UHGV virus genome: UHGV-0849750
Strand: one strand, 5' to 3'
DNA: 41,901 nt
DNA from: a virus
Under the pieces are notes generated by a model. The model was not told where the DNA came from. It searched no databases and saw only the letters and a list, made by a program, of their open reading frames with translations. The position numbers and the translations under genes are program-made. Numbering within the stretch: position 1 is the first letter of the stretch; every line of letters starts with the position of its first letter. Positions 10,339 through 41,901 of this stretch are shown in pieces.

Positions 10339-10914
10339 ATGACACAGACAACACAGACCACACAGCAGGCAGGCGAGGCGACTCAAGAGACGACCAGCCA
10401 GCCCGCAGAGACCACACAGCAGGCGACGGCACCACAGCCCGAGCAGACGGCACAGCAGACCACACCACCGCAAGCCCCGAAGTCGGCATTCATCAGCGAC
10501 GGCAAGCTACCACAGAGCAAGCCACAGCCAACGGCTAACAGCCAACAGCCAAAGGCTAACGAACAGCCAACAGCCAACAGCCAAGAGCTAATAGCAAAAG
10601 TAACCGCCCTGCAGGCACGGCTAGACGCTATTGAGAGCCAGCGCACCACAGAGACACGCACAGCCGAGGTCGAGCGCATCATAGCTCCCCTCAGCGACAC
10701 ACTCAAGGCGGTCTACAGACGCACCCCCTTTGCCTCGCTCACGGACGAGGAGTACACACAGCTCACAGAGACGATCAAAGAGGAGGTCACCGAGTTAGCT
10801 ACAGCGGACAAGGTACGGGGCGCAGTCTTCAGCCGACCCACCGCCATCAAGCCGACCGACGGCAAGGCAAGCGACAAAGAGACCGCAGAAGTTATCAGAC
10901 GACTCAATCTATAA
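10339..10914 (+). CDS. Putative scaffolding protein (T/Q-rich N-terminus with PTANSQQ repeats, helical C-terminus), 191 aa
   Basis: Low-complexity, acidic, helical protein immediately upstream of the capsid genes. Confidence 0.4.
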   Translation: MTQTTQTTQQAGEATQETTSQPAETTQQATAPQPEQTAQQTTPPQAPKSAFISDGKLPQSKPQPTANSQQPKANEQPTANSQELIAKVTALQARLDAIESQRTTETRTAEVERIIAPLSDTLKAVYRRTPFASLTDEEYTQLTETIKEEVTELATADKVRGAVFSRPTAIKPTDGKASDKETAEVIRRLNL

Positions 10915-14379: not shown

Positions 14380-14507
14380 CCAGCTAACAGCCAATAGCCA
14401 ACAGCTAACGGCTAACCCCACAGCCCCACCCCACACGACTAGTCAATCGAAGCAAATACGGGGCTTCCAGCACTAGCCACGGGGCGGGAGCTAACACAAG
14501 AGCGAGA

Positions 14508-14604: not shown

Positions 14605-14958
14605 ATGTTTGAAAACATCTTCATCACCATCTTCACCGCCATCGCAGGAGCCGTCGCCACCGTTTGGGGCTATTGGACGGGACGGAAGAAGACCGCCAGC
14701 GAGAACGCTATCAGACGTGCCGAAGCTCTAGACAAGACCAACGAGATCATCGACCAGCAAGCGGAGAAGCTCGAGAAGCTATACAACATCGTCCTAGCCC
14801 TCCGAGACGAGAACGCCAAGCTCATAAGCCAAAACAACACCCTCAAGCTTAGCGTGGACAACCTCAACAAGGAGGTCGAGTCCCTCCGCCAAGAGCTAGC
14901 ACAGTACAAACACCCAGCCACCAAGCGCAAAGCACCAATCACCGAAGCTTACGAATAG
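14605..14958 (+). CDS. Membrane-anchored coiled-coil protein (N-terminal TM, i-spanin-like topology), 117 aa
   Basis: N-terminal hydrophobic helix IFITIFTAIAGAVATVWGYW followed by a heptad-rich region. Inserted between major tail and chaperone genes. Confidence 0.4.
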   Translation: MFENIFITIFTAIAGAVATVWGYWTGRKKTASENAIRRAEALDKTNEIIDQQAEKLEKLYNIVLALRDENAKLISQNNTLKLSVDNLNKEVESLRQELAQYKHPATKRKAPITEAYE

Positions 14959-14988
14959 CCAAAAGCTAACAGCCAAAAGCCAACCGCC

Positions 14989-15480
14989 ATGATCGAGACA
15001 CAGACCAGCAACCTTCTGAATGACACCCCCACGACCATCGTCATCGGGGGTGCCACCTATCAGATAGCACCACCAACCTTTGCCAACCTCGCCCGCATAT
15101 CCAGCGAGATAGCACAGCTAGAGATTGGCACGATCGACCCCGATCGACTTGCCGAGGGAGTACTCCGTGAGGCACGCCACAGCTACCAGCTGGCACGCAT
15201 CATCGCCACAGCCATTGAGGAGACAGAGCGCACCACAAGGCTCCAGCGTCTATGGCGCAAGATACGGCAGCGCATCACCCGCACCACATTAGCCGACCGC
15301 ATCTACAAGAGCGCCACCCCCTCCGAAGCAACACAAGCTTTCGCAGAGATTCTTCAGACGCTACAGCTGGGGGATTTTTTCGCTTTTACCACTTTCCTCA
15401 GCGGGGCAAGAGTGACGAGGGCGACGAAAGTGGAGACCGCAACAGAAGCGACAGCCCCTGGAGCCTCATCGCTGGCTTGA
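14989..15480 (+). CDS. Tail assembly chaperone G (163 aa)
   Basis: Position immediately upstream of the tape measure. Contains slippery heptamer T_TTT_TTC at 15375-15381 in the 0 frame. Confidence 0.6.
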   Translation: MIETQTSNLLNDTPTTIVIGGATYQIAPPTFANLARISSEIAQLEIGTIDPDRLAEGVLREARHSYQLARIIATAIEETERTTRLQRLWRKIRQRITRTTLADRIYKSATPSEATQAFAEILQTLQLGDFFAFTTFLSGARVTRATKVETATEATAPGASSLA

Positions 15481-15749: not shown

Positions 15750-18700
15750 ATGATCCAAGGCAAAGGCGGTGAGATAGCCGCACGAGTAACCCTCGATACA
15801 TCACAGCTCGACAAAGACGTACAGCGAGCCACGGGCAAGTTTCGCCAAATCTCACAGAGCGCACAGCAGGAGAGCAACCGCATGCGGGACGCTCTCCTCG
15901 GGGTCGGCAAGGCGATGGGGATAGCCTTCTCGGCACAGCAGGCGATAGCTTTCGTCAAGCAAGTCGTGAGCGTCCGTGCAGAGATCCAAGCCCTCGAGGT
16001 ATCATTTCGCACGCTCCTCGGGAGCCAGCAAGCGAGTGCCGAGCTGATGCGACAGATGAAAGAGTTCGCAGCCGCCACACCCCTCCAGCTGGGCGACCTA
16101 GCCAAGGGAGCGCAGACGATGCTCGGCTTTAATGTCGCAGCCGAGGAGATTATGCCTATGCTCAAGGCGATAGGCGACATTTCGATGGGTGATGCGCAGA
16201 AGTTCCAGTCGCTCACGCTAGCCTTTTCACAGATGCAGTCCGTGGGTAAGCTGATGGGGCAAGACCTCCTGCAGATGATCAACGCAGGCTTCTCGCCCCT
16301 AGCCGTTATGGCGGACAAGACGGGCAAGAGTATCGGCGAGCTTAAGGAGGAGATGTCAGCGGGAGCCATTAGCGCTGAGATGGTCAAGCAAGCTTTCATC
16401 GATGCAACCAGCGAGGGCGGGCAATTCTACGGTATGCTATCGGGGCAGGGAGACACCGTCAAGGGCGCACTAGCTCAGCTATCGGGAGCCTTCACGGATA
16501 TGTTCAACGGCATCGGAGAGCAGTCCGAGGGGCTGATCAAGGGGTCGGTCAAGTCCGTGCAGTGGCTCGTCGAGAACTACGAGACGCTCGGCAAAGTCCT
16601 CGCAGGCATCATAGCCACCTACGGCACCTACAAGGCGGTGATGATGACGGTCGTAGCACTAGAGCGACTACAAGTCCAGCTCGCACTGGCTAAGATGGGC
16701 GGGCTGACCAAGTGGGGCGCACTCCTCGAGGTGCTAAAAGCAAAGCAACTAGCACTCAACAAAGCGGTGATGGCTAATCCGTATGTCCTCCTCGCTATGG
16801 CTATCGTGGGTGCTACCTACGGCATCTACAAGCTCGCCACCGCTGAGAGCGAAGCCGAGAAAGCGCAGAAGCGTCACAACGACCAAATGGAGCGGGGCAA
16901 GAAGATGCTCGACGACTACAAACAAGCCGTCAAGGAGTACCTCGACATAGTCCGTGACGACACAGCCACACAGCGTCAGCGTTACGAAGCGTATGAGAAG
17001 CTCATACGACTGATGCCCCAGCTCAAAGGCAAGAGTGTCGAGGAGATTAGCCAAATGGGAGCGGACGACCTCGAGACGCTGCTCAACAAGAACGCAGACG
17101 TCGTCCACTACCAGCAGCTCAAGAAGAACGTCAAGGAGGCAAAGGAAGAGGTCAAGGAGCTACGAGCCGTGGTCGAGGCATACGACAACGCTCCGTGGCG
17201 CAAGGGGGCAGACCTAGAGGTCGAGAAAGCCCGCAAGAAGCTATCAATACAAGAGGACATACTTCGCCAGAAAGAGCAGGAGCTAGCTGTCTATGAGGAG
17301 CAACAGCGACAAGCAGAGTGGGAGGCGAAGACGCAATCCGAGAAGGTCGCATACCTAGAGGAGCAGATCAAGATCCAAGAGCGACAGCAGAGCGTCTACT
17401 CGAGTATGCTACCCCCGCAGGCTCGACAGCTAGCTATGCAGGGCAGGATCTCAGACGCACTCAGAGTGTGCCGTGAGCAGACGGGCGGTATGGCGCAAGG
17501 ACTAGAGCAGGCAGTCCGCAATACAGCAGGCTTTGCTATACAGATAGACAAGCTCCGTGGGCAACTCGGACAGCTACAGACAGAGGACACGGGTAGGAGC
17601 TACAAGCAGGCACTAGCAGACGCCTACCAAGAGTACCAGCGCACACAGCAGGCTCTCGAGGACGCCAAGGACAAGCAAGAGACAGACTACCTAAGAGCTA
17701 AGGAGGAGGCGGAAAAAGCAGAGCAAGCCTACAAAGCACTCGGGGGCAACACCTCGCCACGCACCACAACAACCCCACAGCGTGACCGCAAAGCAGAGCA
17801 GGCGGAGGAGCGCAGACGGCTCCAGCAGTTAGCCGACCTCAAGGCAGACTTTGCCAAGCGGGAGCTACGCACCGCTATGGACAACGAGTTTGCCCTCAAG
17901 CAGGCTCGCATCTCAGCTCAAGAGGACACGATCCAAAAGGAGCTGGAGCTAGCACGGCTCCACACCGCACAGCTCAAGGAGGAGAACAAGCGACGGGAGG
18001 AGGACTGGGTCGAGGCACTCCAACGCAAGCGTGAAGAGGAGTGGAAGCTTCAGAACCCCGCCAAAGCTAAAGAGGGCTACAGCTACACGGGCGTCACCAC
18101 ACGGGACGACCTCAGCGAGCAACAGCTAGAGCAACTAGCCGAGTACGACCGCATCGCCACCGAGCAGGGCGTCAAGGCTGAGACAGAGGCTCTCGCTAAG
18201 CGACTACAGCAGTTTGAGTCCTACCAGCAAGAGCGTCAGCGCATCGCCAAGGAGTATGCCGATAAGGAGCGAGACCTCCACAACGCTGACGGCTCGCTCC
18301 GTGAGGGCGTGACCGAGGCGAACCTTGACGAGCTGAAGCGACAGAGTGACGAGGCACTAGCCCGCATCGACGAGACGTGGGCAGAGCGTGAGGAGACATA
18401 CCAGCAGTGGATGACCGACATCGCCACGATGTCCATCGCACAGCTCGAAGAGGAGCTGAGACGAGTACAGCTACTCCTCGCTAAGGCACAAATAGAGGGA
18501 CGGGACGACAAGAGCGTGGCGGTGATCCGTACGCAAGTCGAGCAACTCAGTAAGAAGCTCGGAGAGGTACACCAAGAGGCACAGCGCACGGGACAGAGCT
18601 TTGCGGACTGGAGCCGTGCCACCGAGACGCTACGAGCCACACGGGACGAGCTAGACGGCATCGCTGAGAGCATACGACCGCTCAGCGACAGCCTCGCAGA

Positions 18701-20024
18701 CGCTATCCAAGACGTGGCGGGCTTAGCTACACCCGTCATCGGCATCATCGGCAGTATCGGCAAGTTTGCCGAGATGACCTCCAAAGGCATCGAGTCTACC
18801 GCCACCGCCACACAGCGGGCTATCGCTATGGCGGAGCGTGGCACCGTACTACTCACCGTCCTATCGGGAGCGTTACAGTTAGCCACCAAGGTCGCACAGC
18901 TCTTCAGCAGGGATAAGCGCCACGAGAAGAACATCGAGGAGCTAGCGGACAAGATAGCCGACATTCAGTGGAGCCTCGACCACTGGGGCTGGGACAAGCT
19001 CGAGGAGAGCGCAGGCAAACCGCTAGAGCGCATCAACGAGTGGCTCGCAGAGGCACGACTCAAGTCGCTGGCAGCTGCAGCCGCCACGGGAGACTATGCC
19101 AAGTCGTGGCAGGTGATGCAAGACATAACAGCAGGCACAGAGCAGGCTGGACGACGGCTCGCTGACGCTTACATGCAAGCGGACTATATGGCGGGCAAGC
19201 TCCTCGGCTCCGACCGCTACTCCGAGGCACGCAAGCAACTCGACCTTATGGGTCAGCAGGTCGCACTCATACGCCAGCAGGCGGAGCAAGAGCGCAAAAA
19301 GAAGAAGTCAGACCAAGATAAGCTCGACAGCTACGACCAGCAGATCGCAGAACTGACAGCCAAGATGGCGGAGAAGATCGACAACATGCTGAGCGACCTC
19401 CTCGGGGGCGATGCTATCCAGCTAGCCGACAAGCTCGGCAACGCCCTCTTCGATGCATTCAGCAAGGGCGAGGATGCGGCTAAAGCGTTTGACAAGTCAG
19501 TCAACGACATCATCAATAATATGGTCAAGAAGCTCATCATTCAGCAGTTCCTCGAGAAGCCGATCCAAGAAGCGATCAATAAGCTCAAGCAGGCGGTCAC
19601 AGCAGATGGCGAGCTGAACATGGACGAGATGTACGCTAGCCTCGGAGCAATATACGACGACCTAGCCAAGATCGGAGACAACGCTGGCAAGATCCAAGAG
19701 GTCTACGAGGGCATCATCAAGGGTCTCGGCATTGACCTCGAGGACACACTCACAGGACAGCGCAAGGGCATAGCAGCCGCCAGCCAAGATAGCATCGACG
19801 AGCTGAACGGACGAGCCACCGCCATACAGACGCACACCGCTATGATAGCGCAAGGCACCGCCCGCCTCACGACCTTAGCGCAAAGCACCTTTGACCAGCT
19901 CGTAGAGGTCGGTCGTATGGTCAAGGAGGGCAACGCCACACGCCAGCGCATCGAGACCTCCACCGCCACCATCGCCACCAAGGTACGAGACTTCGAGACC
20001 TACGGCATTAAAATGAAGAGATAA
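15750..20024 (+). CDS. Tail tape measure protein (1424 aa, coiled-coil rich)
   Basis: Longest ORF. Highly helical, Q/E/A/K-rich, with glycine-rich hydrophobic segments. Follows G/GT. Confidence 0.8.
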   Translation: MIQGKGGEIAARVTLDTSQLDKDVQRATGKFRQISQSAQQESNRMRDALLGVGKAMGIAFSAQQAIAFVKQVVSVRAEIQALEVSFRTLLGSQQASAELMRQMKEFAAATPLQLGDLAKGAQTMLGFNVAAEEIMPMLKAIGDISMGDAQKFQSLTLAFSQMQSVGKLMGQDLLQMINAGFSPLAVMADKTGKSIGELKEEMSAGAISAEMVKQAFIDATSEGGQFYGMLSGQGDTVKGALAQLSGAFTDMFNGIGEQSEGLIKGSVKSVQWLVENYETLGKVLAGIIATYGTYKAVMMTVVALERLQVQLALAKMGGLTKWGALLEVLKAKQLALNKAVMANPYVLLAMAIVGATYGIYKLATAESEAEKAQKRHNDQMERGKKMLDDYKQAVKEYLDIVRDDTATQRQRYEAYEKLIRLMPQLKGKSVEEISQMGADDLETLLNKNADVVHYQQLKKNVKEAKEEVKELRAVVEAYDNAPWRKGADLEVEKARKKLSIQEDILRQKEQELAVYEEQQRQAEWEAKTQSEKVAYLEEQIKIQERQQSVYSSMLPPQARQLAMQGRISDALRVCREQTGGMAQGLEQAVRNTAGFAIQIDKLRGQLGQLQTEDTGRSYKQALADAYQEYQRTQQALEDAKDKQETDYLRAKEEAEKAEQAYKALGGNTSPRTTTTPQRDRKAEQAEERRRLQQLADLKADFAKRELRTAMDNEFALKQARISAQEDTIQKELELARLHTAQLKEENKRREEDWVEALQRKREEEWKLQNPAKAKEGYSYTGVTTRDDLSEQQLEQLAEYDRIATEQGVKAETEALAKRLQQFESYQQERQRIAKEYADKERDLHNADGSLREGVTEANLDELKRQSDEALARIDETWAEREETYQQWMTDIATMSIAQLEEELRRVQLLLAKAQIEGRDDKSVAVIRTQVEQLSKKLGEVHQEAQRTGQSFADWSRATETLRATRDELDGIAESIRPLSDSLADAIQDVAGLATPVIGIIGSIGKFAEMTSKGIESTATATQRAIAMAERGTVLLTVLSGALQLATKVAQLFSRDKRHEKNIEELADKIADIQWSLDHWGWDKLEESAGKPLERINEWLAEARLKSLAAAAATGDYAKSWQVMQDITAGTEQAGRRLADAYMQADYMAGKLLGSDRYSEARKQLDLMGQQVALIRQQAEQERKKKKSDQDKLDSYDQQIAELTAKMAEKIDNMLSDLLGGDAIQLADKLGNALFDAFSKGEDAAKAFDKSVNDIINNMVKKLIIQQFLEKPIQEAINKLKQAVTADGELNMDEMYASLGAIYDDLAKIGDNAGKIQEVYEGIIKGLGIDLEDTLTGQRKGIAAASQDSIDELNGRATAIQTHTAMIAQGTARLTTLAQSTFDQLVEVGRMVKEGNATRQRIETSTATIATKVRDFETYGIKMKR

Positions 20025-26429: not shown

Positions 26430-26797
26430 CGCACAGCCCCCACCAGCTATCCTTATCCGCAATTTCACTACCTTTGCGGACAGAGCGAGCGACCCCGCCA
26501 GCACCCAAATTTCTACACATTTGATGCTACGTTGTTGCTCGCAAGGATGTTATATATGCGTTACTTCGTAATTACTAGCACGTTACACAACCACAACTAT
26601 CTTCGCCATACGAATATATGGGGTAATCACGCCTATGCAAAGATACGACAAACGAACGACATAAGCAGACAAAGGAAAGCAAGTAATAGAGCAGTATCGA
26701 GACAAGAGCAAGACAATCGGAATTTATCTCCAGTTGCCTTGCTTTTGTCGTATTATTGTTGTTACTTTGTTGCTCACATCAATCCGAGCAACAAGAA

Positions 26798-27889
26798 ATG
26801 AACGCAAACGAACCCGTCAAGCTACGCAAGCGCAAGACACGCACGGGGCTGTCCAGCCTCTATCTAGACACCTATAACAACGGCAGGCGCACGTACGAGT
26901 ACCTGCGCCTCTACCTCGTCCCCGAGAAAACACGAGAGGACAAGCGTAAGAACAAGGAGACGCTTCAGCTGGCGGAGGCGATCCGAGCTAAGCGAGTGGT
27001 CGAGTATCACGAGGGGAGGTACGGTTTTGAGACGAGCGGGCAGGACAATACGCTACTATTTGACTACTTCCACGTGCAGGCTAAAGACCACAAGGGTAAG
27101 ACTGTGCGTAGCTGGTACAACTGCCTCCAGTACTTAGAGCAGTACGAGACACGGAGCAACGTCACGTTTTCCGATGTCACGTCCGAGTGGGTGCAGGGCT
27201 TCCGAGAGTACCTAGAGGCGCAAGAGTTGTCGCAAAACAGCAAGGCACTATATTTCTCTAAGCTCCGTGCCTGCATCAATCGAGCGTACAAAGACGGTAT
27301 TATCACGGACAACCCACTGAAACGAGTGAGGAGCATCAAGCACGAGGAGAGCAAGAGGGAGCACCTCACGATAGAGGAGGTGCAGAGGCTAGCGGAGACA
27401 GACTGCGACAACGATATAGTCAAGAGGGCTTTCCTCTTCTCCTGCCTAACTGGACTGCGCAGGAGCGACATCGAGCAATTGCAGTGGAGTGACGTCCACA
27501 AGGAGGGCGACTACACACGCATAACATTTCGCCAGCGCAAGACGGGCGGGCAGGAGTACCTCGACATCACCCACGAGGCTCGAGAGCTTATGGGAGAGGA
27601 GCAGGGAGAGGAGGAGCTAGTATTTGATCACCTCCCCTATCCAGCTAACACTAACACATTCATCAAGGTCTGGACAGCACGGGCAGGCATACGCAAGCAC
27701 ATCACCTTCCACTCAGCCCGACACACCTTTGCCACGATGATGCTAACGCTCGGCACCGACCTCTACACGGTCTCCAAGCTCCTCGGACATAAGGACATCA
27801 AGACGACCGAGATCTACGCTAAGATCGTGGACAAGGGCAAGCAGGAGGCGGTCGCTCGCATCCCGTCAATACTTAACAAGGAAGAGTGA
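26798..27889 (+). CDS. Tyrosine integrase (site-specific recombinase, phage integrase family)
   Basis: C-terminal catalytic signature HSARHTFATMMLTLGTDLYTVSKLLGHKDIKTTEIYAKI (R…HxxR…Y). Start chosen at MNANEPVKLRKRK within ORF 26756.. Confidence 0.8.
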   Translation: MNANEPVKLRKRKTRTGLSSLYLDTYNNGRRTYEYLRLYLVPEKTREDKRKNKETLQLAEAIRAKRVVEYHEGRYGFETSGQDNTLLFDYFHVQAKDHKGKTVRSWYNCLQYLEQYETRSNVTFSDVTSEWVQGFREYLEAQELSQNSKALYFSKLRACINRAYKDGIITDNPLKRVRSIKHEESKREHLTIEEVQRLAETDCDNDIVKRAFLFSCLTGLRRSDIEQLQWSDVHKEGDYTRITFRQRKTGGQEYLDITHEARELMGEEQGEEELVFDHLPYPANTNTFIKVWTARAGIRKHITFHSARHTFATMMLTLGTDLYTVSKLLGHKDIKTTEIYAKIVDKGKQEAVARIPSILNKEE

Positions 27890-28014: not shown

Positions 28015-28308
28015 ATGCGAATCGTTTTTGAAGACCCTAGGCTTGAGAAGTTGCTAGCAAACAAGGCAAAGGCGTACAGAAAGTACGGACACAAAGCTAT
28101 CAATACGCTCTACGCACGATTATCAGACATTGAGAGCGTGGATAGTGTCTCTGAGCTTGCGATGTTGCCTGGAGACTTTCATCAATTAAAGCATAATATG
28201 AGCGGTCTATGGGCTTGTTCGCTGACGGGAGCTTTACGCCTTATTATGAGGGTTGAGGACGATATGACAGCCATTATCGAGATTACGGACTATCACAAGC
28301 GCAAGTAA
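28015..28308 (+). CDS. higB: HigB-like toxin of the RelE/ParE superfamily (plasmid-maintenance killer family), 97 aa
   Basis: GDFHQLKHNMSGLWACSLTGALRLIMRVEDDMTAIIEITDYHKR matches the HigB pattern …L.G.L.G.WS.R….RI.FR.…I.DYH. Confidence 0.6.
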   Translation: MRIVFEDPRLEKLLANKAKAYRKYGHKAINTLYARLSDIESVDSVSELAMLPGDFHQLKHNMSGLWACSLTGALRLIMRVEDDMTAIIEITDYHKRK

Positions 28309-28310
28309 CT

Positions 28311-29435
28311 ATGACAAACAGCAAGAACACATTTACAATACCCGTAGTATCACCGCCAGGGGCAACACTGAAGGAACTCATAGACGAGTGGGGTATGAGC
28401 CAGCAGGAGGTCGCAGCCCGATTGGGAAAGCTACCAAAAGATGTAAGCTTACTTTTTGCGGGGCGACTGAGAGTAACGCCAGACTGGGCTGAGCGTCTAG
28501 AGCTAGTCACTGGGCTGAGTCGTGGCTTTTGGTTGCGACGACAAGAGAGCTACGATGAGTATCTCAAGCGTGAGGAAGCAAAGCCACTTGTAAAGAGAGA
28601 GTGGGACAACTGGGCATCGCTCTTCCCGACTAGAGAGATGATTAAGCGTGGCTGGATAGCTCCAGTCTCCGCTTCCATTAGGGACATAACGGAGGCGGTG
28701 AAGTCGTTTTTCGCCACAACGTCCTCAGGGGCATGGTGCGATGTCTATCTACAACGACTGCAAGCAAGCTTATTCCGCAAGAGCGAGAAGAGCGACCCAT
28801 ACGCTCTCCTAGCGTGGATTAGGCAGGGAGAGTTACAAGCTAGAGAGCTATCAGCCACAAGAAGCGAAGAGTTGGGGGAGTATAGCAAGCAGGAGCTGAA
28901 GAAAGCAGTGCCAGCGATCAAGCAGGCTCTAGAGACACCAGCGGACGCACCTCGTAAAGTGCAAGACATCTTATTGTCGGTCGGGGTCAGATTAGTCTAC
29001 CTTGAGAGCTTCCCCAAGGTATCAGCCAACGGAGCAACGATCCACACTGGGAGGTACCCCATTATCATTTTGTCCGACAGAGGTAAGCGGTATGACATCT
29101 TCGTCTTCTCTCTGATGCACGAGATTGCACACCTCTTACTACACGTAGGCAAAGAGACCCCGATGCTCATTGACGACAGCGAGCAGGAGCGACTAGAGAT
29201 AGAAGCAGAGGCGGACAAGTGGGCAACAGACACACTAGTGCCTAACGTGGACTTTGGTGCGATATTAGTACCACCTACCCCCGAAGAGGTGATCCAGCTA
29301 GCCAAGAGCCAAGGAGTACACCCGAGCGTAATAGTCGGACGCTTACAGCACGAAAAGATAGTCTCCTACAGAGCAGGAGGAGCCACATACAAGAACTTGA
29401 TAGAGAAGATAGACCTACAAACGGGGGCTGTCTAA
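28311..29435 (+). CDS. HigA-type HTH antitoxin fused to an M78/ImmA-IrrE-like HExxH metallopeptidase domain (374 aa)
   Basis: N-terminal PPGATLKELIDEWGMSQQEVAARLG…GFWLRRQ (HigA/XRE HTH). C-terminal region has DIFVFSLMHEIAHLLLH (HExxH) plus a downstream EAEADKWA acidic segment. Starts 3 nt after the higB stop. Confidence 0.55.
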   Translation: MTNSKNTFTIPVVSPPGATLKELIDEWGMSQQEVAARLGKLPKDVSLLFAGRLRVTPDWAERLELVTGLSRGFWLRRQESYDEYLKREEAKPLVKREWDNWASLFPTREMIKRGWIAPVSASIRDITEAVKSFFATTSSGAWCDVYLQRLQASLFRKSEKSDPYALLAWIRQGELQARELSATRSEELGEYSKQELKKAVPAIKQALETPADAPRKVQDILLSVGVRLVYLESFPKVSANGATIHTGRYPIIILSDRGKRYDIFVFSLMHEIAHLLLHVGKETPMLIDDSEQERLEIEAEADKWATDTLVPNVDFGAILVPPTPEEVIQLAKSQGVHPSVIVGRLQHEKIVSYRAGGATYKNLIEKIDLQTGAV

Positions 29436-29531: not shown

Positions 29532-30608
29532 TTACTTGTCGTATCGTTTGGCTATCTCGATCAGCTTGTCCTTATAGTTGTAGATGTCGCTCAAATCACC
29601 ACCGACCAAGTCCACATTCTCTTCCAGCTTATCCTCCGTGATAAACGAGATGCGTCGTATGTCACGATAGTTAAATCTGAGTCGGCAGACCGTCTGAGTG
29701 ACCTTGCCGTCGAGGATAACAGCAAAATAATTCTTCGTATCCTTGTAGGAGATGCGGTCGGGGCTAATGTACTCGCTTAGGATAGCCCGACAGATATGGT
29801 ACGCATCCAGCTCCTCATCGGTAGTCTCAATACCATTGTCAGACACGCTTTCCTCCTGCTCATCGGCAGGCTCCTCAGCCGTTTTGCTCGCTGGTTCGCT
29901 CTCCTTCATTGCAACCTTCAAGCGGTCAGCGATGATGTCATTAATGTAGAGAGATATAGACCGCTTGAGGAGGGGCTGGAACTCTTCGACAATACGCTGA
30001 GTCACGATGCCCGTATACAGTTGCTTGACGACGTAGCGGGTGAAGTCGGGGCTGGGGTCGGTTAATTCAGATTGGATCACCGCCCGAAGCTCACCGAGAT
30101 ACTTCAGCTCATTAGCTGTCGAGAGGACTGTCTCGACATTGAAGTACGACTTGTGAAATTTCTTCAGCTCTTCAATCTGAGCGTCCTTGAGTGCCTGCAG
30201 ATTCACCTCAAGAAATGGGACGGTGTCCATTTGGTTGGGCTTTTCGAGGTCGGTGTAAAACCGCCATATGATGCCATTGGTCAGTACGCCAAACTTAGCA
30301 GTCGATACCCCGAAGTATCTTATGAGTTGATTGTCGTATAGCGACAAATCCTGCGCCCAATGCTTACACTCAATCAGTATCACTGGTTCGCCCTCTTTGA
30401 GGATTGCATAGTCGATCTTCTCGCCTTTCTTTGTGCCGATGTCGCAAGTGTACTCGGGCAAGACTTCAGTCGGGTCGAAGACGTTGTACCCTAGAGCCGT
30501 AAGCATCGGCATAATCAGTGCATTCTTTGTTGCCTCCTCGGTCTGCAGATTGTCCTTTAGCTTGTCAATCTTCTGTCCGATTTGGAGGATCATATCTTTT
30601 AAGTCCAT
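29532..30608 (-). CDS. PD-(D/E)xK nuclease-like protein with HsdR-N-like N-terminal domain and unknown C-terminal domain (358 aa)
   Basis: EEATKNALIMPMLTALGYN…IDYAILKEGEPVILIECKHW is an HsdR_N-type motif (D…E-C-K). Start taken at MDLKDM. Lies 20 nt downstream of the CI gene on the same strand. Confidence 0.5.
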   Translation of the reverse strand: MDLKDMILQIGQKIDKLKDNLQTEEATKNALIMPMLTALGYNVFDPTEVLPEYTCDIGTKKGEKIDYAILKEGEPVILIECKHWAQDLSLYDNQLIRYFGVSTAKFGVLTNGIIWRFYTDLEKPNQMDTVPFLEVNLQALKDAQIEELKKFHKSYFNVETVLSTANELKYLGELRAVIQSELTDPSPDFTRYVVKQLYTGIVTQRIVEEFQPLLKRSISLYINDIIADRLKVAMKESEPASKTAEEPADEQEESVSDNGIETTDEELDAYHICRAILSEYISPDRISYKDTKNYFAVILDGKVTQTVCRLRFNYRDIRRISFITEDKLEENVDLVGGDLSDIYNYKDKLIEIAKRYDK

Positions 30609-30628
30609 ATCTATAGTGTATTGGGTTG

Positions 30629-31441
30629 TTATGCGAAGTAAGCGATGCTGGCACGGACACGCCACAGCCCCACAACGTGGGAGATAGGTATCTCAAAGTC
30701 CTCGTACCGTTCATTGTCCGAGCGGGCTATCCAGTACTCCCTGCGCTTTGCGGGGTCATCGTGCTTGTACAGACGCTTGACGTAGTCCGTCACAGCCTTG
30801 GAGTCGGGGTCATCGGGGTCGTGCAGGACGATGGCAAAAGCTTCGCCAAAGGGTATCGACAACGGCTCATCGAGTCGAAACCACACACGAGAGACAGCCA
30901 GCCGTGACCCCTGCGGAAAGGTCGGAGCCATCGAGTCGCCCACCACGGGAACAATCATATCAGCCCGCACATCGGGCATCGTCCAGACGCTCTCCACCTC
31001 GTTCATCGTCTCCGCAAGCGGATAGCCATCATTGCCCCCCTTGAAAGGCTCGGAGAACATCGGTATCAGCTCCACCCCTAGCTCATCAGCCAGCGCACGA
31101 GCCTTCTCCAGCTTGTCCAGCGTGAACTCTGTCGGCTCCGTCCGTGGATCGTGACCGCTCAGCATATCGCCCTCGCCAGTGAGGACATCATCATCGCCAG
31201 TGAGGACATCATCATCGCCAGCCAACATCTCGCCACTCCCATTACTGAGCCAAGAAGAGTTCAAACATTTGAACGCTTTTGCGACAAGATCCATATAGTA
31301 TGGAGTTGCCTCCTTGTACCCATTTTTAATTCCAGTGACAACAGAGCGACCAACGCCTATCTTCTCGGCAAAGTCCGCTTGATTGTACGCTAAGCCTGCG
31401 GAAATCACATATTCCATAGCTTTCACAAATCTGTCATTCAT
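30629..31441 (-). CDS. CI-like repressor: N-terminal HTH plus C-terminal S24 (LexA-like) autopeptidase domain (270 aa)
   Basis: HTH ADFAEKIGVGRSVVTGIKNG. S24 Ser motif VVGDSMAPTF and Lys in YVKRLYKHDD. Linker carries tandem GDDDVLT repeats. Confidence 0.7.
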   Translation of the reverse strand: MNDRFVKAMEYVISAGLAYNQADFAEKIGVGRSVVTGIKNGYKEATPYYMDLVAKAFKCLNSSWLSNGSGEMLAGDDDVLTGDDDVLTGEGDMLSGHDPRTEPTEFTLDKLEKARALADELGVELIPMFSEPFKGGNDGYPLAETMNEVESVWTMPDVRADMIVPVVGDSMAPTFPQGSRLAVSRVWFRLDEPLSIPFGEAFAIVLHDPDDPDSKAVTDYVKRLYKHDDPAKRREYWIARSDNERYEDFEIPISHVVGLWRVRASIAYFA

Positions 31442-33421: not shown

Positions 33422-33724
33422 ATGGCTACAATGGACGACATCAAGCGTCAGCTCGATCGCATCGAGCAGTACGCTGTCATATCTAGCAAGGAGGTGCTAG
33501 ACCTAGAAGAGGCGATCACATACACGGGGTGCGCACGATCCACCCTCTACCGCCTCACCTCCGCAAAGGAGATACCCCATTACAAGCTGGGGCAGGCACT
33601 CCGCTTTAAAAAATCCGAGCTGGACGAGTGGCTCACCAGAACGAGGGTAGCAACCGCCAAGGAGATCGAGAGCAAAGCAGTGACCTATATGACGCTCAAG
33701 GACAAGGGATATACACGCAAGTAG
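33422..33724 (+). CDS. AlpA/excisionase-like HTH DNA-binding protein (100 aa)
   Basis: LDLEEAITYTGCARSTLYRLTSAKEIPHYKLGQALRFKKSELDEWL matches the AlpA/Xis (HTH_17) pattern. Confidence 0.5.
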   Translation: MATMDDIKRQLDRIEQYAVISSKEVLDLEEAITYTGCARSTLYRLTSAKEIPHYKLGQALRFKKSELDEWLTRTRVATAKEIESKAVTYMTLKDKGYTRK

Positions 33725-34965: not shown

Positions 34966-35177
34966 TGATTGGCAACCCTAAGGCTCCCACCCCGCAACCC
35001 TAAAGCTAACGGTCGGCAAGCCTAAGCCTCCCGAGCGGGACACATAGGTCTCCCGAGCGCAAGGCATATGTACCCGATACGGCTCAATCGTACCCACGTC
35101 ACCACAGACGTGTACCCGATACCGCCAATTCGTACCCACATCACTAGACAATATCAACCAATAACACAATAAAGAAA

Positions 35178-35810
35178 ATGGAAGCAATAAGCATCAAGCA
35201 AGGAGCGCACAGCGCACTACTACTCCACCTCGCTCAGATACAGAGCGAGCTGAAAGCCCCCAAGGGACAGCGTAACACCTTCGGGAAGTATAACTATCGC
35301 AGTTGCGAGGATATACTCGAGGCTGTCAAGCCTCTACTCACCGTGCGGGGACTAGTCCTCCTCATCACGGACGACATTGTCCAGATAGGCGAGCGATACT
35401 ACGTCCGTGCTACAGCCACCATCTACGACAGCGAGGGGAGCTACATCAGCAACTCAGCACTAGCCCGTGAGGAGGCAGTGAAGAAAGGTATGGACGCTTC
35501 GCAGATAACGGGAGCGACCAGCTCATACGCCCGCAAGTACGCCCTCAACGGACTCTTCGCCATCGACGATACCAAGGACGCTGACGCTACCAACAAGGGG
35601 CAGGACGAGCCAAAGCCCGCAAAGGCAACCGCACAGCCAGCCTTTACGGACGAGATCAAAGGCGCACTAGCCAAGGCGCAGACGGTGCAGGAGCTAGTGG
35701 AGACCTTCGGCAGGCTCCCGCAGGCACTACGAAACAGCGCAGATGTCAAGAGCTACTGCGCTCACCTCAAGGGCAAACTAGAGACCCCACAACCAGCGAC
35801 ACAAAAATAG
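35178..35810 (+). CDS. ERF-family single-strand annealing protein (210 aa)
   Basis: Conserved ERF segments NTFGKYNYRSCEDILEAVKPLL and SYARKYALNGLF. Confidence 0.65.
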   Translation: MEAISIKQGAHSALLLHLAQIQSELKAPKGQRNTFGKYNYRSCEDILEAVKPLLTVRGLVLLITDDIVQIGERYYVRATATIYDSEGSYISNSALAREEAVKKGMDASQITGATSSYARKYALNGLFAIDDTKDADATNKGQDEPKPAKATAQPAFTDEIKGALAKAQTVQELVETFGRLPQALRNSADVKSYCAHLKGKLETPQPATQK

Positions 35811-35886
35811 ACACCTATCTATCAATCAATAGACAGCTGTCTATCACTCAAAAGACAGCTGTCTAATTTCAAGCAAGCAAAAGACA

Positions 35887-36824: not shown

Positions 36825-37487
36825 ATGACTATCCAACCAAAGAGCAAGGAAGCAGTAGCATGGACGGGCGAGTGTCCGATCACCTACGTAGACTTTGACA
36901 CACCACGAGAGCCACGATTCGAGGGGCAGAAGCCCCAATACCAGTGCATCGTCCTCATCGACAAAGGGGACAAGGCGACACTCAAGGCTATCGGTGACGC
37001 TATCCAAGTAGCCAAGGAGAAGCTCACGGACACCGATCCAGCCGACCCATTCGCTCCATTCCTCAAGGACGGAGACGAGCGCACGGATAAAAATGGTGAC
37101 CCCGTGGAGTCCTTCCAAGGCAAGTGGTACTTCACCGCAAAGAACACCGAGAGACCTAACGTCTACAAGCTTACCGACACGGGAGCCGAGCCTGCAGAGA
37201 CGGGCGAGGTGACCAACTGGGACGCAGGGCAGGTGGTCGTATACCTTAACGCTTACGACTACCAAGGACACAAGGGGGTCTCGGCTCGGCTCCTCGGATT
37301 TTGTAAGACTGGCTCAGTCCGTGAGCCACGGGAGACGATGCCAGTCGATGCAATGTTCGGACACCTCGGTGCCACAGCTACAGCCCCAGCCAATAGCCAA
37401 CAGCCAACGGCTAACAGCCAACAACCCCTGCAGACGGGCTTCGACCCCAACGCACAAGCAAGTAGCAACGACGACTTCCCCTTCTAG
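36825..37487 (+). CDS. Single-stranded DNA-binding protein with C-terminal acidic tip DDFPF (220 aa)
   Basis: C-terminal …SSNDDFPF resembles the SSB protein-interaction tail (DDDIPF). Preceded by ANSQQPTANSQQP linker. Sits in the recombination/replication module. Confidence 0.55.
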   Translation: MTIQPKSKEAVAWTGECPITYVDFDTPREPRFEGQKPQYQCIVLIDKGDKATLKAIGDAIQVAKEKLTDTDPADPFAPFLKDGDERTDKNGDPVESFQGKWYFTAKNTERPNVYKLTDTGAEPAETGEVTNWDAGQVVVYLNAYDYQGHKGVSARLLGFCKTGSVREPRETMPVDAMFGHLGATATAPANSQQPTANSQQPLQTGFDPNAQASSNDDFPF

Positions 37488-37489
37488 CT

Positions 37490-39970
37490 ATGGTCACACC
37501 CGACTCTACATATACTATCGCAGTAGGGCGGTCAAGGCGGGACACTGAGTGGCACAACACAGCGGTCACGTGGGGCAAGCTCAAGGAGCTACTCCAGCAC
37601 AGACGCACAGCCTGCACCCTTAGAGAGTACCAACAACTCTCTAAAGAGGAGCAGGGGCGCATCAAAGACGTGGGGGGCTTCGTGGGCGGGGAACTCAAAG
37701 CGGACGGCAGGCGCACAGCTGACAACATCAATTATCGCACGCTCCTGACGCTAGACGTAGACCACGCTACCAAGCTACCGACCAAGATAGCACCGCACTA
37801 CGCCCTCATCGTCTACTCCACACACAGCCACACACCCGAGGCTCCTCGCTATCGGGTGGTGGCTCCCCTATCCCGTCCGTGCAACGACATCGAGTACCAA
37901 GCGGTGGCGCATCGTATGGCAGAGGGGCTGGGCGTGGACATAGTCGATATGACCTCCTGCGAGCCGTCACGACTGATGTACTGGGCAGCAGCACCTCGGG
38001 ACGCTGAGACCTACTACTACCAGCAGGACGGGGAGCCAGTAGACGTGGACGCTATGCTGGCAACCTACAAGGACTACACCAACACAGCCGAGTGGGCAGG
38101 CGCACCACGAGTGGGCAGACCACGCACCACACCACGAGGAGCCTCGGCACGTATGGAGGATCCACGCACTAAGGACAACATCGTCGGCTCGTGGTGCCGT
38201 ACCTACGACTGCATCGACGTACTCGAGCAGATGATCCCTAACCTCTACAAGCCAGCGGGCATTAACAGATACACACACATAGGATCGTCATCGTGGGGCG
38301 GGCTTTGCATCTACGACAACGGCACATTCTGCTACTCATTCCACGAGAGCGACCCGATAGGCGGGCAACTGCTCAACGCATGGGATCTCTACAGACTGAC
38401 GCACTTCGCACACTTAGATGCACGAGCAGCCGACACCACACGAGCCGACAGACTACCCAGTTACACAGCTATGGCAGAGTACGCACTAATGATACCCGAG
38501 GTCAAGCGGGACTACCTCGCACACACCAAGGCACGCAACACAGCAGACCTCAGCGAGGTGGGGTTCTCCTTTGCGGACACAACCACTTCCAGCACGGACA
38601 CGGATAACGAGGACGACACCGACGACTGGCTCAGCGAGCTAGCAACAGATGCCAAGGGCAACATCGCCAACACGCTGACCAACTACGCTCTGATTCTCAA
38701 GCACGACCCCAACGCTATCAAGGGGCGGGTCGTTTACGACGAGTTTCGAGGCGAGAAGCGGGTCATCGGTGACCTCCCGTGGGAGCGCACGGACGGCACC
38801 TCGTGGACAGACGCTGACACAGCCTGCCTAGCCCTCTACATAGACCGCACCTACAAGCTACGGAGCAAGGACTACCTCACGATGATGCTCGATGCCGTCA
38901 CGCAGGGCAACGACTTCCGTCGCAACGTGGTGCAGGAGTTTATCGAGCAGGAGCAGTGGGACGGCTCGCCACGAGTGGACAACCTCTTCGTCAAGTATCT
39001 CGGAGCCGAGGACAACGACTACAGCCGTATGATCACCCGCAAGAGCCTTGTCGCCTGCGTGGCACGAGCTTACAAGCCAGGCATCAAGTACGACCAGATA
39101 ACCGTCCTCGTAGGCTCCCAAGGCATCGGCAAGTCGTCAATCTTGCGCAAGCTAGCAGGCGGGGGCGACCTCTTTATGGACAGCTTCACAATGGACGCAC
39201 GCTCCAACAAGATGCAGGAGAGCGTCCGAGGAGCGTGGATAATCGAAATCCCCGAATTGGAAGGCTTTTATAAGCAAGATATGAATGTTATCAAGTCCTT
39301 TGTCAGCAAGCAGAGCGACACCTACCGACCAGCCTACGGACGGGAGCAGATCAAGGTACCACGCACCTGCGTTTTCTTCGCTACGACCAACGAGGGGGAC
39401 TTCCTCCGAGACAGCAGTGGCAACAGAAGATTTTGGATCCTCCAGTGCGGGGAGCCACAAGCACCGCTCAGCGAGCTGACACCCAGCGAGGTGTCGCAAG
39501 TATGGGCAGAGGCTAAGGTCATCTGGGACTCGGGAAAGGAGCGACTATACCTCAACAAGGAGGAGGGCAAGGAGCTAGCCAAGCGACAGCGAGACTACGA
39601 TATGGACAACGACCTCCTCGGAGAGCTACAAGCTTTCCTCGAGATCCGCCTCCCAGCTGACTGGGAGGAGTACAGCAAGCTGGAGCGACGAGCCTACATA
39701 CAAGCACGCAAGAGCGGTGCAGCCTACACACGCACGGAGATGGCAGGTGGCAACCTCATCAACGTCAAGGTCGACGGCGTATGCCCCCGCATCGAGATCT
39801 CAGCCGTGGAAGTCCTCAACGAGTTCTTCGCAGAGGACAACGGACGGGGCAACGTACAGACCCGCAAGGCTAACAGTCTCCTCCGCAAGCTAGAGAACTG
39901 GCAAGAGGGCAACCGCCGACGACTCAGTGGAGGGTACGGAATACAGAAATGCTACGACAAGATACTATGA
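37490..39970 (+). CDS. DNA primase-polymerase (AEP, DxD motif) fused to VirE/D5-type P-loop helicase (826 aa)
   Basis: N-terminal TLDVDHA (DxD). C-terminal Walker A VLVGSQGIGKSS and Walker B-like region. Confidence 0.65.
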   Translation: MVTPDSTYTIAVGRSRRDTEWHNTAVTWGKLKELLQHRRTACTLREYQQLSKEEQGRIKDVGGFVGGELKADGRRTADNINYRTLLTLDVDHATKLPTKIAPHYALIVYSTHSHTPEAPRYRVVAPLSRPCNDIEYQAVAHRMAEGLGVDIVDMTSCEPSRLMYWAAAPRDAETYYYQQDGEPVDVDAMLATYKDYTNTAEWAGAPRVGRPRTTPRGASARMEDPRTKDNIVGSWCRTYDCIDVLEQMIPNLYKPAGINRYTHIGSSSWGGLCIYDNGTFCYSFHESDPIGGQLLNAWDLYRLTHFAHLDARAADTTRADRLPSYTAMAEYALMIPEVKRDYLAHTKARNTADLSEVGFSFADTTTSSTDTDNEDDTDDWLSELATDAKGNIANTLTNYALILKHDPNAIKGRVVYDEFRGEKRVIGDLPWERTDGTSWTDADTACLALYIDRTYKLRSKDYLTMMLDAVTQGNDFRRNVVQEFIEQEQWDGSPRVDNLFVKYLGAEDNDYSRMITRKSLVACVARAYKPGIKYDQITVLVGSQGIGKSSILRKLAGGGDLFMDSFTMDARSNKMQESVRGAWIIEIPELEGFYKQDMNVIKSFVSKQSDTYRPAYGREQIKVPRTCVFFATTNEGDFLRDSSGNRRFWILQCGEPQAPLSELTPSEVSQVWAEAKVIWDSGKERLYLNKEEGKELAKRQRDYDMDNDLLGELQAFLEIRLPADWEEYSKLERRAYIQARKSGAAYTRTEMAGGNLINVKVDGVCPRIEISAVEVLNEFFAEDNGRGNVQTRKANSLLRKLENWQEGNRRRLSGGYGIQKCYDKIL

Positions 39971-39984
39971 AAAAGACCTCCGCA

Positions 39985-40112
39985 AAGGGTGTGATCGGTA
40001 GGTGTGATTGGTGCCGTGATTGGTGGTGTGATCGGTCGGGACTAAACACGGGTAAGTGTGATCGGTCAAAAAGACCAAACACAGCACCAAACACGGGTAC
40101 CAAACACGGGCT
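39985..40112. repeat. Iteron arrays, putative replication origin: five copies of GGTGTGATYGGT then four copies of CCAAACACGGGTA-like units, followed by an AT-rich tract
   Basis: Direct repeats read from sequence immediately downstream of the primase-helicase stop. GATC present in most A-type units. Confidence 0.55.
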
Positions 40113-40358
40113 ATTTTTCAATTTTCCAACTACTTACATACTACTGTGATTGCTGTGTCTAGTATTTCTGAATGTTTGATGAAAAGCGGAGTTTACATAC
40201 AGATAATTGAATATTGGGGTATGTATAGACGGTAGGCGCTCAATACATGCGCGTGCGAGGATTACCAAACACACCCCCCCCCAAGAAAATCGGAGGAACG
40301 GAGGAATCGGAGAGGAGACATTACACGTGCGAGACAACAACGACAAAACAACAACGAG

Positions 40359-40655
40359 ATGAGCAACAAGAGGGAATACAGCGAGAAGTACCTAGAGCGA
40401 AAGCTGGTCGAGCGGATAAAAACACACGGGGGGCTTTGTTTGAAGTTCGCTTCCGTAACCGAGGCAGGCTACCCCGACCGCCTTTGTTTGATGCCCCACG
40501 GCAAGACGCTGTGGGTCGAGCTGAAGACAACGGGGCGCAAGCCGACCAAGCTACAAGAGATACGACACCAAGAGCTACGAGAGCGGGGCTTTGCAGTCTA
40601 CGTCGTGGACGATATGATAACCTTAGAGCAGGCAGTGAGAGATGCTACAGCGTAA
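40359..40655 (+). CDS. VRR-NUC domain nuclease (98 aa)
   Basis: GYPDRLCLMPHGKTLWVELKTTGRKPTKLQ matches the VRR-NUC PD…(D/E)xK core (G.PD…E.K..G…Q). Typical partner of phage SNF2 helicases. Confidence 0.55.
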   Translation: MSNKREYSEKYLERKLVERIKTHGGLCLKFASVTEAGYPDRLCLMPHGKTLWVELKTTGRKPTKLQEIRHQELRERGFAVYVVDDMITLEQAVRDATA

Positions 40656-41859
40656 CCAATTGCACGAGTACCAAGAGCGGGCGGTCGAGTGGATTAAGAC
40701 GCACAAGAGTTGTGCGCTATTTCTGGAGATGGGACTAGGCAAGACCGTCAGCACACTAACAGCTATCGCAGAGCTTAAGGAGGCGGGAGCCGTCTCCTCC
40801 GTGCTGGTGATAGCCCCCAAGCGAGTAGCCGAGCGGACGTGGACGGACGAGATAGAGAGGTGGCAGCACCTCCAAGGACTGACAGCCGTCAAGATACTCG
40901 GCACCCCAGCGCAACGACTCAAGGCACTCAGCACGCCAGCCGACATACACATCATCAACAGAGACAACGTGGCGTGGCTGGACAAGGTGCTGTCGGTACC
41001 GCTTAAGCCCTTCCCCTTTGACGCCTTAGTGATCGATGAGCTGAGTAGCTTCAAGGCATACGGCACCCAACGCTTTAAGGCGATGAAGCACCTCCGCACA
41101 CGCTTTGACCGAATCATCGGGCTAACGGGTACCCCCTCGCCTAACTCGCTAATGGACATTTGGAGCCAGCTCTACATACTTGACGGAGGCGAGCGTCTCG
41201 GGGAGTACATAACCAAGTACCGACAGACGTACTTCACCCCAGGGCGAGGTCGTGGGCATATCGTCTACGAGTGGATTATCAAGCCGTGGGCATCGGACGC
41301 TATCTACGGGCGCATCGGAGACATCTGTATGAGTATGAGAGCTGATGACTACCTCACCCTACCGCCCGTCAACTACGTCGACGTCTCAGTCGGACTGACG
41401 GACAAGGAGCGCAAGGAGTACCAAGATTTCAAACGGGATCAAGTCCTCCCGACAGCTGACGGGATCATCACCGCCAGCAACGCAGGCGTACTCTGTGGTA
41501 AGCTCCAGCAGTGGACGGGGGGAGCCATATACACTGAGGAGGGGGCAGCAGCCCCAACCACGCCTGCCAAGCTGGAGCGACTAAAGGAGATGCTCGAGGA
41601 GATTCACACGCCCGTCATCATCGCCTACCATTACAAGCACGAGCTGGCACGACTGAGAGCGGAATTCCCGCAAGCTAAGACGATAGACGAGGCGGGAGTC
41701 TTCGATGCTTGGAATCGTGGCGAGGTGCCTATCCTACTCGGTCACCCAGCCAGCATCGGTCACGGACTCAACCTCCAGCGAGGCGGTCACACGATCATCT
41801 GGTACACCCCCACGTGGAGTCTCGAGCTATACGAGCAATTCAACGCCCGCCTCGCTGGA
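40642..41859 (+). CDS. SNF2-family helicase, N-terminal and central part; gene continues at 3..344 across the circular junction
   Basis: Motif I LEMGLGKTVSTLTAI. DExx-type box VIDELSSFKA. Helicase-C motifs near the end. The annotated stop at 41863-41865 is created by the terminal inverted artefact. Confidence 0.7.
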
Positions 41860-41901
41860 GGTTGAGTCCGTGACCGATGCTGGCTGGGTGACCGAGTAGG
41901 A
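41860..41901. other. 42-nt segment that is the reverse complement of bases 1-46; probable assembly artefact at the contig end
   Basis: TGGAGGTTGAGTCCGTGACCGATGCTGGCTGGGTGACCGAGTAGGA is the reverse complement of 1..46. It truncates the helicase reading frame artificially. Confidence 0.6.

Follow-up and report, generated by a model that had tools for sequence, protein, structure and literature searches.

Where would this phage begin to replicate its DNA, and which of its proteins would recognise the site? The question is raised by a 388-bp gap (39971-40358) between the stop codon of a primase-helicase gene (39970) and the start of a VRR-NUC nuclease gene (40359), which an earlier note on this DNA had proposed as a replication origin. 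The window, by which we mean the whole 41,901-nt stretch that was analysed, represents a temperate phage assembled completely as a circle: the first 124 nt are found again at 41732-41855, and the last 46 nt, an assembly artefact, repeat nt 1-46 as the reverse complement. The gene for the SNF2 helicase, which begins at 40642, therefore runs across the junction to approximately nt 340, and its stop at 41865 is artificial. The phage encodes TerS, TerL, a portal, a major head protein, a CI-like repressor and a tyrosine integrase of the Bacteroidota type (26756-27889; Arm-DNA-bind_5 and SAM_5 domains), and a 1424-aa ORF at 15750-20024 is, from its size and position, likely the tape-measure protein. 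The probable host is a member of the Bacteroidota, because the only match in the genome collection is a Porphyromonadaceae MAG contig, promoters of the form TTTG-N17-23-TAnnTTTG (which we take to be the Bacteroidota consensus) are enriched, the VRR-NUC start lacks a Shine-Dalgarno sequence, and the integrase is of a type presumably typical of that phylum.

Several other genes were observed along the way. Just upstream of terS, a 116-aa ORF (1004-1354) matches the C-terminal end of Pfam Cas_Csd1 (PF09709, E 1.4e-13) and appears to be a phage-carried Cas8c-like fragment. The integrase gene is followed by an ORF (28015-28308) with weak, sub-threshold HigB/RelE-like toxin matches, by a gene for an HTH and M78 peptidase protein (28311-29435), and by a 377-aa HSDR_N-domain protein on the minus strand (29532-30665).

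The features on which the argument depends are as follows, where L numbers denote related loci.

37490-39970, plus strand: primase-helicase gene, 826 aa (Pfam VapE-like_dom, E 8.6e-74; PHROG 256, E 2.5e-234)
39899-39967, plus strand: codons 804-826 of that gene, a predicted wing beta-hairpin (AF2 strands 804-812 and 818-824) and hypervariable tail
39991-40036, plus strand: four direct iterons, GTGATCGGT / GTGATTGGT / GTGATTGGT / GTGATCGGT, at a spacing of 12-13 bp
40041-40049, minus strand: degenerate inverted iteron, ACTAAACAC as read on the plus strand; L001, L002 and L006 have an inverted copy at the same position
40058-40066, plus strand: fifth direct iteron, GTGATCGGT
40074-40107, minus strand: three inverted iterons, ACCAAACAC on the plus strand and GTGTTTGGT on the minus strand, at a spacing of 12-13 bp
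40108-40235, no strand: AT-rich tract, 66% AT, the proposed DNA-unwinding region
40146-40163, plus strand: two degenerate direct iterons, GTGATTGCT and GTGTCTAGT, inside the AT-rich tract and forming the left member of a convergent pair
40264-40272, minus strand: distal inverted iteron, ACCAAACAC, beyond the AT-rich tract, its position conserved in relatives
40274-40282, plus strand: C9 homopolymer, the longest run in the window, missing from L001, L002, L003, L088 and most relatives
40359-40655, plus strand: VRR-NUC nuclease gene, directly downstream of the gap and followed by the SNF2 helicase gene

The first observation concerns the repeats themselves. Both sets of units described in the earlier note are present, namely five direct units (GGTGTGATYGGT) at 39988-40067 and four of a second type (CCAAACAC) at 40041-40112. 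These had been read as two iteron families, and prove instead to be one 9-bp core in two orientations: the inverted copies of the relatives are exact reverse complements of their direct ones, and the right-hand units of the window are the reverse complement of the left-hand core bar one position (GTGTTTGGT versus GTGATTGGT). The five direct copies follow (G)GTGTGATYGGT with GTGATYGGT cores starting at 39991, 40004, 40016, 40028 and 40058 (the third copy is GCCGTGATTGGT), and the first iteron begins 21 nt past the primase-helicase stop codon. The four ACCAAACAC-type units begin at 40041 (degenerate, ACTAAACAC), 40074, 40086 and 40099. Further copies, which the earlier note had missed, are the degenerate direct pair at 40146-40163, where a copy of repeat family D1 also lies (40145-40155), and the full inverted copy at 40264-40272. 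The sites in the gap thus total 12, degenerate copies included: a nine-site direct-then-inverted array lies to the left of the AT-rich tract, and to its right there is only the one full inverted copy at 40264, which faces the two degenerate direct copies.

The whole 41.9-kb window holds 10 exact matches to the core GTGWTYGGT, nine of them within 39991-40272 (five on the plus strand, then four on the minus strand), whereas 1.5 ± 1.3 were expected from shuffled sequence and none of 100 shuffles reached 10. This enrichment, together with the positional conservation described below, rules out a chance origin of the repeats. The degenerate-motif search is the valid repeat test for this window; an exact-k-mer statistic under-scores it because the sites vary at the W and Y positions and because AGCYAAC arrays elsewhere score higher. 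Those heptamer arrays are tandem and all on the plus strand (286-312, 7005-7024, 10526-10591, 14382-14408, 14957-14990 and 37388-37421); a 13-mer search allowing up to 2 mismatches returned 26 matches against 1.8 expected, and they are partly intragenic (the SSB C-terminus and ORF 10339-10914) and partly intergenic near putative tail-chaperone genes. Within the gap, the arms 39991-40024 and 40074-40107 are 76% complementary across 34 nt, and the inverted arrays can be folded as an imperfect hairpin (dG -25.5 kcal/mol, z = -2.9), a potential that we regard as a by-product of the inverted iteron arrays.

The AT-rich stretch noted earlier is likewise present and follows the iterons, at a length of approximately 130 bp (40108-40235) rather than approximately 200 bp. 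The interval 40115-40214 within it has the highest AT content (70% versus a mean of 45%) and the lowest thermodynamic stability of any 100 bp in the window, with a nearest-neighbour dG of -117.7 versus a mean of -144.7 ± 7.1; promoter regions rich in AT come close to this instability in other parts of the genome. The cytosine run reported as C8 at 40271-40278 is actually C9 at 40274-40282, and it is probably incidental. Other signals in this region were few. A search of 39800-40500 with Rfam at a permissive threshold returned no RNA family, and a known non-coding RNA in the gap was rejected on this basis. The small ORFs at 39949-40149 (plus), 39924-40121 (minus), 40134-40346 (minus) and 40247-40738 (plus) were rejected as genes because relatives have different repeats there in the same layout. 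The cumulative GC skew reaches its lowest raw value at 39208, near the gap, within a monotonic fall, which was judged not decisive because coding-strand bias dominates the skew.

If the gap is an origin, which protein would act on it? The 826-aa protein encoded directly upstream has an N-terminal region of the archaeo-eukaryotic primase type (DVDH and THSH motifs), a VapE/SF3-type helicase and a C-terminal winged helix. Its residues 377-800 match SaPI1 Rep1, the protein of the Rep1-DNA complex in PDB entry 7PDS (PMC9371898), with a phmmer E of 1.1e-68. Residues 480-826, modelled with AlphaFold2 from 82 homologues, gave a mean pLDDT of 91.6, and the top Foldseek match of this model is again 7PDS over the whole length (E 7e-30, TM 0.69-0.77), followed by NrS-1 and the poxvirus D5/E5 SF3 helicases. 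The C-terminal end of the model shows a winged-helix topology, with a strand, a helix at 772-779, a recognition helix at 788-799 and a beta-hairpin at 804-824. Upstream of the gene lie Erf, a PD-(D/E)XK exonuclease and an SSB of the Enc34/gp2.5 type. The ORFs scanned, which comprised the large ones and most of the early region, yielded no DNA polymerase, no helicase of the DnaB type and no further initiator.

From these features we predict, with good confidence, that the gap 39971-40358 is the vegetative, theta-type replication origin of the phage and that it is of the Rep/iteron type known from SaPIs and PICIs. By homology, the primase-helicase would be a self-loading initiator whose C-terminal winged-helix domain binds the 9-bp iterons GTGWTYGGT. 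Hexamers formed on oppositely oriented sites either side of 40108-40235 would then melt the AT-rich tract, the SF3/VapE helicase rings would load on the melted DNA, and the N-terminal primase domain would lay the first primers for the host polymerase. The Erf, exonuclease, SSB, VRR-NUC and SNF2 proteins encoded nearby may subsequently aid recombination-dependent or late replication. An origin beside the primase-helicase gene, as the earlier note had placed it, is well supported by the homology to SaPI1 Rep1, by the layout of SaPIs and PICIs (PMC9371898, PMC6092414), and by the recurrence of the same layout in 80 of 90 loci.

That recurrence was established by comparison. A megablast search of 37490-41901 against GenBank phages gave no matches; relatives were gathered by protein similarity, and the close ones (77-96% amino-acid identity) came from IMG/VR and metagenomes. 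To these were added Staphylococcus phage 3A, which has the same synteny of helicase, gap, VRR-NUC and SNF2, and 80 further loci, of which 77 are at 35-40% identity and three are close relatives already included; isolate-derived prophages are among them. In 80 of 90 unique loci (35-96% identity, from phages of Bacteroidota and Firmicutes, Staphylococcus phage 3A among them), the 420 bp after the stop codon are the most repeat-rich window of the locus, repeat richness being measured by the most-repeated 7-mer of any window in the locus. The distant relatives carry lineage-specific 8-10-mer repeats in both orientations. Because the repeat-rich 420 bp are shared so broadly, the repeat gap is a family-wide feature tied to the 3' end of the helicase gene. 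In L006, the Porphyromonadaceae-MAG contig, another window outside 8440-8824 has a 7-mer present 15 times, versus nine times in the origin-like gap.

The relatives keep the layout and change the sequence of the repeats. Following the stop codon, the common order is three to four direct copies, one inverted, one direct, two to three inverted, a spacer, two direct, approximately 100 bp, and one to two inverted; the maps of most relatives read '>>. << ... >> [AT-rich 80-110 bp] <<', and a counterpart of the 40146-40163 pair is seen in L001, L002, L003, L006 and most distant relatives. Three iteron classes were distinguished among the close relatives: class A, GTGATYGGT (the window and L096); class B, TGGATTGGT with inverted copies ACCAATCCA (L001, L002, L088, L089, L094 and L098); and class C, TGGC(G/T)TAT, or TGGCKTAT, for example TGGCTTAT (L003, L097, L090, L091, L092, L095 and L099). 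L006, at 56% identity, has iterons of the sequence TGAGTTCGG. The first iteron of classes B and C shares bases with the stop codon.

Does this conservation of layout allow for some other role of the repeats? Packaging (pac) and partition (parS) sites can also hold arrays of short repeats, and the gap lies approximately 3.5 kb upstream of terS across the circular junction, so that a pac site, a centromere-like partition site or a set of functionless repeats might be considered. However, the gap does not adjoin terS, no ParA was found, and the layout follows the helicase gene in phages of differing genome organisation; functionless repeats are contradicted by the same enrichment and positional conservation that exclude chance. 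We consider this group of explanations very improbable.

The earlier note had named 34966-35177 as another place where replication might initiate. This segment, non-coding and upstream of Erf, was rejected as an alternative origin since L002 and L003 lack it despite having the same replication genes, and since its repeats are unrelated (GTACCC, four copies). It contains a 34-nt direct repeat (35069-35102 and 35111-35144) that holds the four GTACCC units, as well as CCTAAGSC-like repeats. Because it is present in L001 (88% identity) and absent from L002 and L003, the comparison points to an accessory mosaic segment and not to a conserved origin. Between the Erf and exonuclease genes, at 35806-35865, lie 2.7 tandem copies of a 22-bp unit (TRF) with the palindrome GACAGCTGTC, the first copy degenerate; this element looks like an operator.

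Nucleotide identity between the window and its close relatives is 85-100% on both flanks of the gap and falls to 45-80% from approximately 39895 to 40170 and in an island at 40260-40299. The segment between approximately 40170 and 40260 is not specially conserved, because identity there is at the background level of the flanking genes. This profile bears on a different reading, in which the gap serves mainly to control transcription of the operon that follows it (VRR-NUC, SNF2 helicase and packaging genes), with the repeats as operators of a regulator and approximately 40164-40330 as promoter and leader. The gap does precede a new gene block, the octamer at 40171-40178 (AATGTTTG) differs at a single position from TAnnTTTG, the Bacteroidota -7 element, and other parts of the window are enriched in full TTTG-N17-23-TAnnTTTG promoters (4 versus 0.24 expected). 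Moreover, the iterons flank approximately 40164-40330, and downstream there is a GGAGG tract together with an 11-codon upstream ORF that overlaps the VRR-NUC start. These last elements were recorded as a purine-rich stretch at 40288-40318 with three GGAGG motifs and an ORF from GTG at 40327 to TGA at 40362, whose stop overlaps the VRR-NUC start (ATGA); relatives have an insertion of approximately 80 bp and a longer small ORF, and L001 is without the GTG start.

However, the GTGWTYGGT motif occurs at no other promoter in the genome, and the gap has no exact Bacteroidota -7 box or promoter; promoter and terminator scans of the gap yielded only a weak sigma-70-like match, which is not kept in relatives, and no plus-strand terminator. 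The homologous gap of Staphylococcus phage 3A is without a promoter-like (sigma-70) site, the presumed promoter and leader at approximately 40164-40330 are no more conserved than the flanking genes (85-100%), and iteron class tracks the helicase C-terminus and not any regulator. For these reasons a role mainly in transcriptional control seems improbable to us, and a pure promoter/operator role is unlikely. Given the near-consensus -7 box AATGTTTG, the gap may have a dual role as origin and promoter.

The tracking of iteron class by the helicase C-terminus also bears on which part of the predicted initiator would read the iterons. Pairs of proteins that are at least 85% identical from the helicase to the recognition helix were compared over their last ~25 residues. 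Pairs of the same iteron class have tails that are 73-100% identical, whereas in pairs of different class the tails are 26-67% identical. L035, L037 and L040 are 99-100% identical in the rest of the protein and differ in the last ~25 residues and in their iterons, and the same switch of tail and iteron is seen in L058/L059, in L029/L044 and between the window and L001. In the alignments, the changes sit in the wing hairpin, after an unchanged recognition helix; the class B wing tail, for example, is GWTATKERPILSGGYGRQTIFKKDLGNGFK at the counterpart of residues 804-826. The earlier note had guessed that the N-terminal domain binds the iterons. Since iteron class instead covaries with the last ~25 residues, the C-terminal winged helix is the more likely binder, and we propose that iteron specificity is set mainly by the wing hairpin, residues 804-826. 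A caveat to this covariation is a natural chimera in L093 (4900-5049), where the first half of the wing is class B-like (WTATRERPILSGGYGRQ) and the second half class C-like (IVFRRTPSEKGGV); class C iterons follow, and the contig ends 47 nt past the stop codon.

Co-inheritance of wing and iterons could arise from linkage rather than function, because the wing codons adjoin the iterons and linkage alone could give such covariation; in classes B and C, moreover, the first iteron itself dictates the last residues, because it overlaps the stop codon. A related alternative accepts the gap as an origin and assigns the iterons to another protein, either a host initiator or a different DNA-binding protein of the phage, for instance the HTH_17 protein (33422-33724) or the methyltransferase with the ParB-like domain (8864-10240). 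In vitro, SaPI1 Rep1 distinguished poorly among origins, and its authors suggested that an additional specificity factor might exist (PMC9371898); the phage does encode a ParB-like domain. Across independent lineages within the fetched loci, however, a switch of iterons is accompanied in the proteins by a change in the helicase wing alone, a reading of the gap sequence brought up no DnaA-box-like motif, and the layout is tied to the 3' end of the helicase gene in 80 of the 90 loci. Recognition by another protein is very improbable in our judgement.

The exchanged unit, as judged from the identity profile, appears to be an iteron cassette at approximately 39895-40170, within which the wing hairpin and the iteron array would evolve and recombine jointly. 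The distal site shows a different pattern. Its class differs from that of the main array in 5 of 17 close relatives, namely L094 (B with A), L090 (C with A), and L003, L097 and L091 (C with B-like); a strict need for a matched distal site is therefore doubtful, and the distal iteron may not be required. We suggest tentatively, with the case still close to balanced, that the wing hairpin and adjacent iterons form a short exchangeable specificity cassette that has been switched repeatedly between otherwise identical initiators, perhaps avoiding cross-talk between co-resident prophages or hijacking by satellites, while the distal iteron assorts separately.

The same comparison lends no support to a role for methylation. 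The earlier note counted four iterons with GATC and proposed that origin activity is tied to adenine methylation; GATC is found in three only (39993, 40030 and 40060), and the proposal finds no comparative support, with the tetramer in 3 of the 12 sites of the window and in none of the class B, class C or L006 iterons. Genome-wide, GATC is under-represented (129 versus 179 ± 12 in shuffles). A Dam/GATC-controlled origin of the oriC or P1 oriR type is likewise unsupported, GATC being neither clustered nor conserved in the origin repeats. The amino-methyltransferase that had been ascribed to the phage is indeed encoded, as a ParB-like N-terminal domain fused to a DPPY DNA methyltransferase (8864-10240).

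How does the predicted origin compare with known systems? The closest are the SaPIs, whose Rep proteins are initiators as well as helicases and recognise iterons through a C-terminal winged helix; deletion of that C-terminal domain abolishes ori binding, and the SaPI ori consists of 6-12 iterons directly downstream of rep, with an AT-rich centre and at least two iterons per side in opposite directions (PMC9371898). Gram-negative PICIs have the same layout and a functioning pri-rep-ori module, and the authors state that no other replicon shares it (PMC6092414). The helicase and C-terminal domain of SaPI1 Rep1 are homologous to those of the phage protein (E 1e-68; TM about 0.7), primase and helicase are fused in both the phage protein and SaPI5 PriRep5, and the predicted phage origin, like the origin of the islands, lies directly 3' of the gene. 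The phage gap resembles theirs in about 12 short iterons of either orientation that surround an AT-rich tract, in a specificity that would track the C-terminal winged helix (in the phage, as judged by covariation), and in the lack of a separately encoded loader. There are differences as well. The phage is no satellite island: it is temperate and complete at 41.7 kb, with a probable host in the Bacteroidota, and its classification as a PICI satellite was rejected because the window encodes TerS, TerL, portal, major head protein, integrase and repressor. Its iterons are 9 bp long versus 5-6 bp in SaPIs, most of its sites (nine) lie on one side with one full copy beyond the AT-rich tract where SaPIs have at least two per side, and the distal site can be of another class in its relatives.

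Other systems share parts of this arrangement. The predicted origin of S. thermophilus phages of the 2972/Sfi21 type has been placed downstream of the replication module (PMC13575424). In Streptococcus thermophilus phage 2972, the position is the same, in a non-coding gap after the primase and SF3-like helicase genes and before a Holliday-junction resolvase gene, and the gap holds GACAC/GTGTC repeats in both orientations with an AT-rich centre. BLASTP found no similarity between 2972 gp38 and the window protein (E > 1), so gp38 was rejected as a homologue and the likeness is one of layout alone. The corresponding region of Sfi21, when cloned, reportedly confers origin-type phage resistance, a result attributed to Foley et al. 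in 1998. The plasmid pRN1 has an essential origin element just downstream of its replication gene (PMC4234260). Its ORF904 product (primase-polymerase, SF3 helicase and winged helix) has the same domain order as the phage protein; pRN1 is, however, an archaeal plasmid, and its origin is a stem-loop of ~100 nt without iterons, whereas the phage hairpin derives from inverted iteron arrays. The alpha protein of satellite phage P4 combines primase and helicase in one chain and uses a C-terminal winged helix to bind octamer iterons, direct and inverted. Its likeness to the phage protein is by description, in the fused primase-helicase and the direct and inverted iterons; the P4 ori does not adjoin the alpha gene, and a second site (crr) is needed.

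Taken together, the locus is very probably a Rep-ori module of the SaPI/PICI type in a complete Bacteroidota phage, a known type of origin and a largely expected one, and current understanding is not overturned. A literature search turned up no direct description of an origin in VirE/VapE-type phages. Two aspects are modestly new: the layout recurs very widely among bona fide phages, although it has been stated to be absent from all other replicons (PMC6092414), and the cassette of wing and iterons seems to have been switched repeatedly. The natural swaps (~25 differing residues, 8-9-bp iterons) offer material for the study of how a winged helix reads its site, and could serve as orthogonal replicons for Bacteroidota genetics. 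The work also gives a concrete candidate origin and initiator for uncultured gut and oral Bacteroidota prophages, a group about whose replication very little is known. It suggests that SaPI/PICI-type origins are common to bona fide phages across phyla, which bears on the source of the satellites' replicons and on possible interference between phage and satellite replication.
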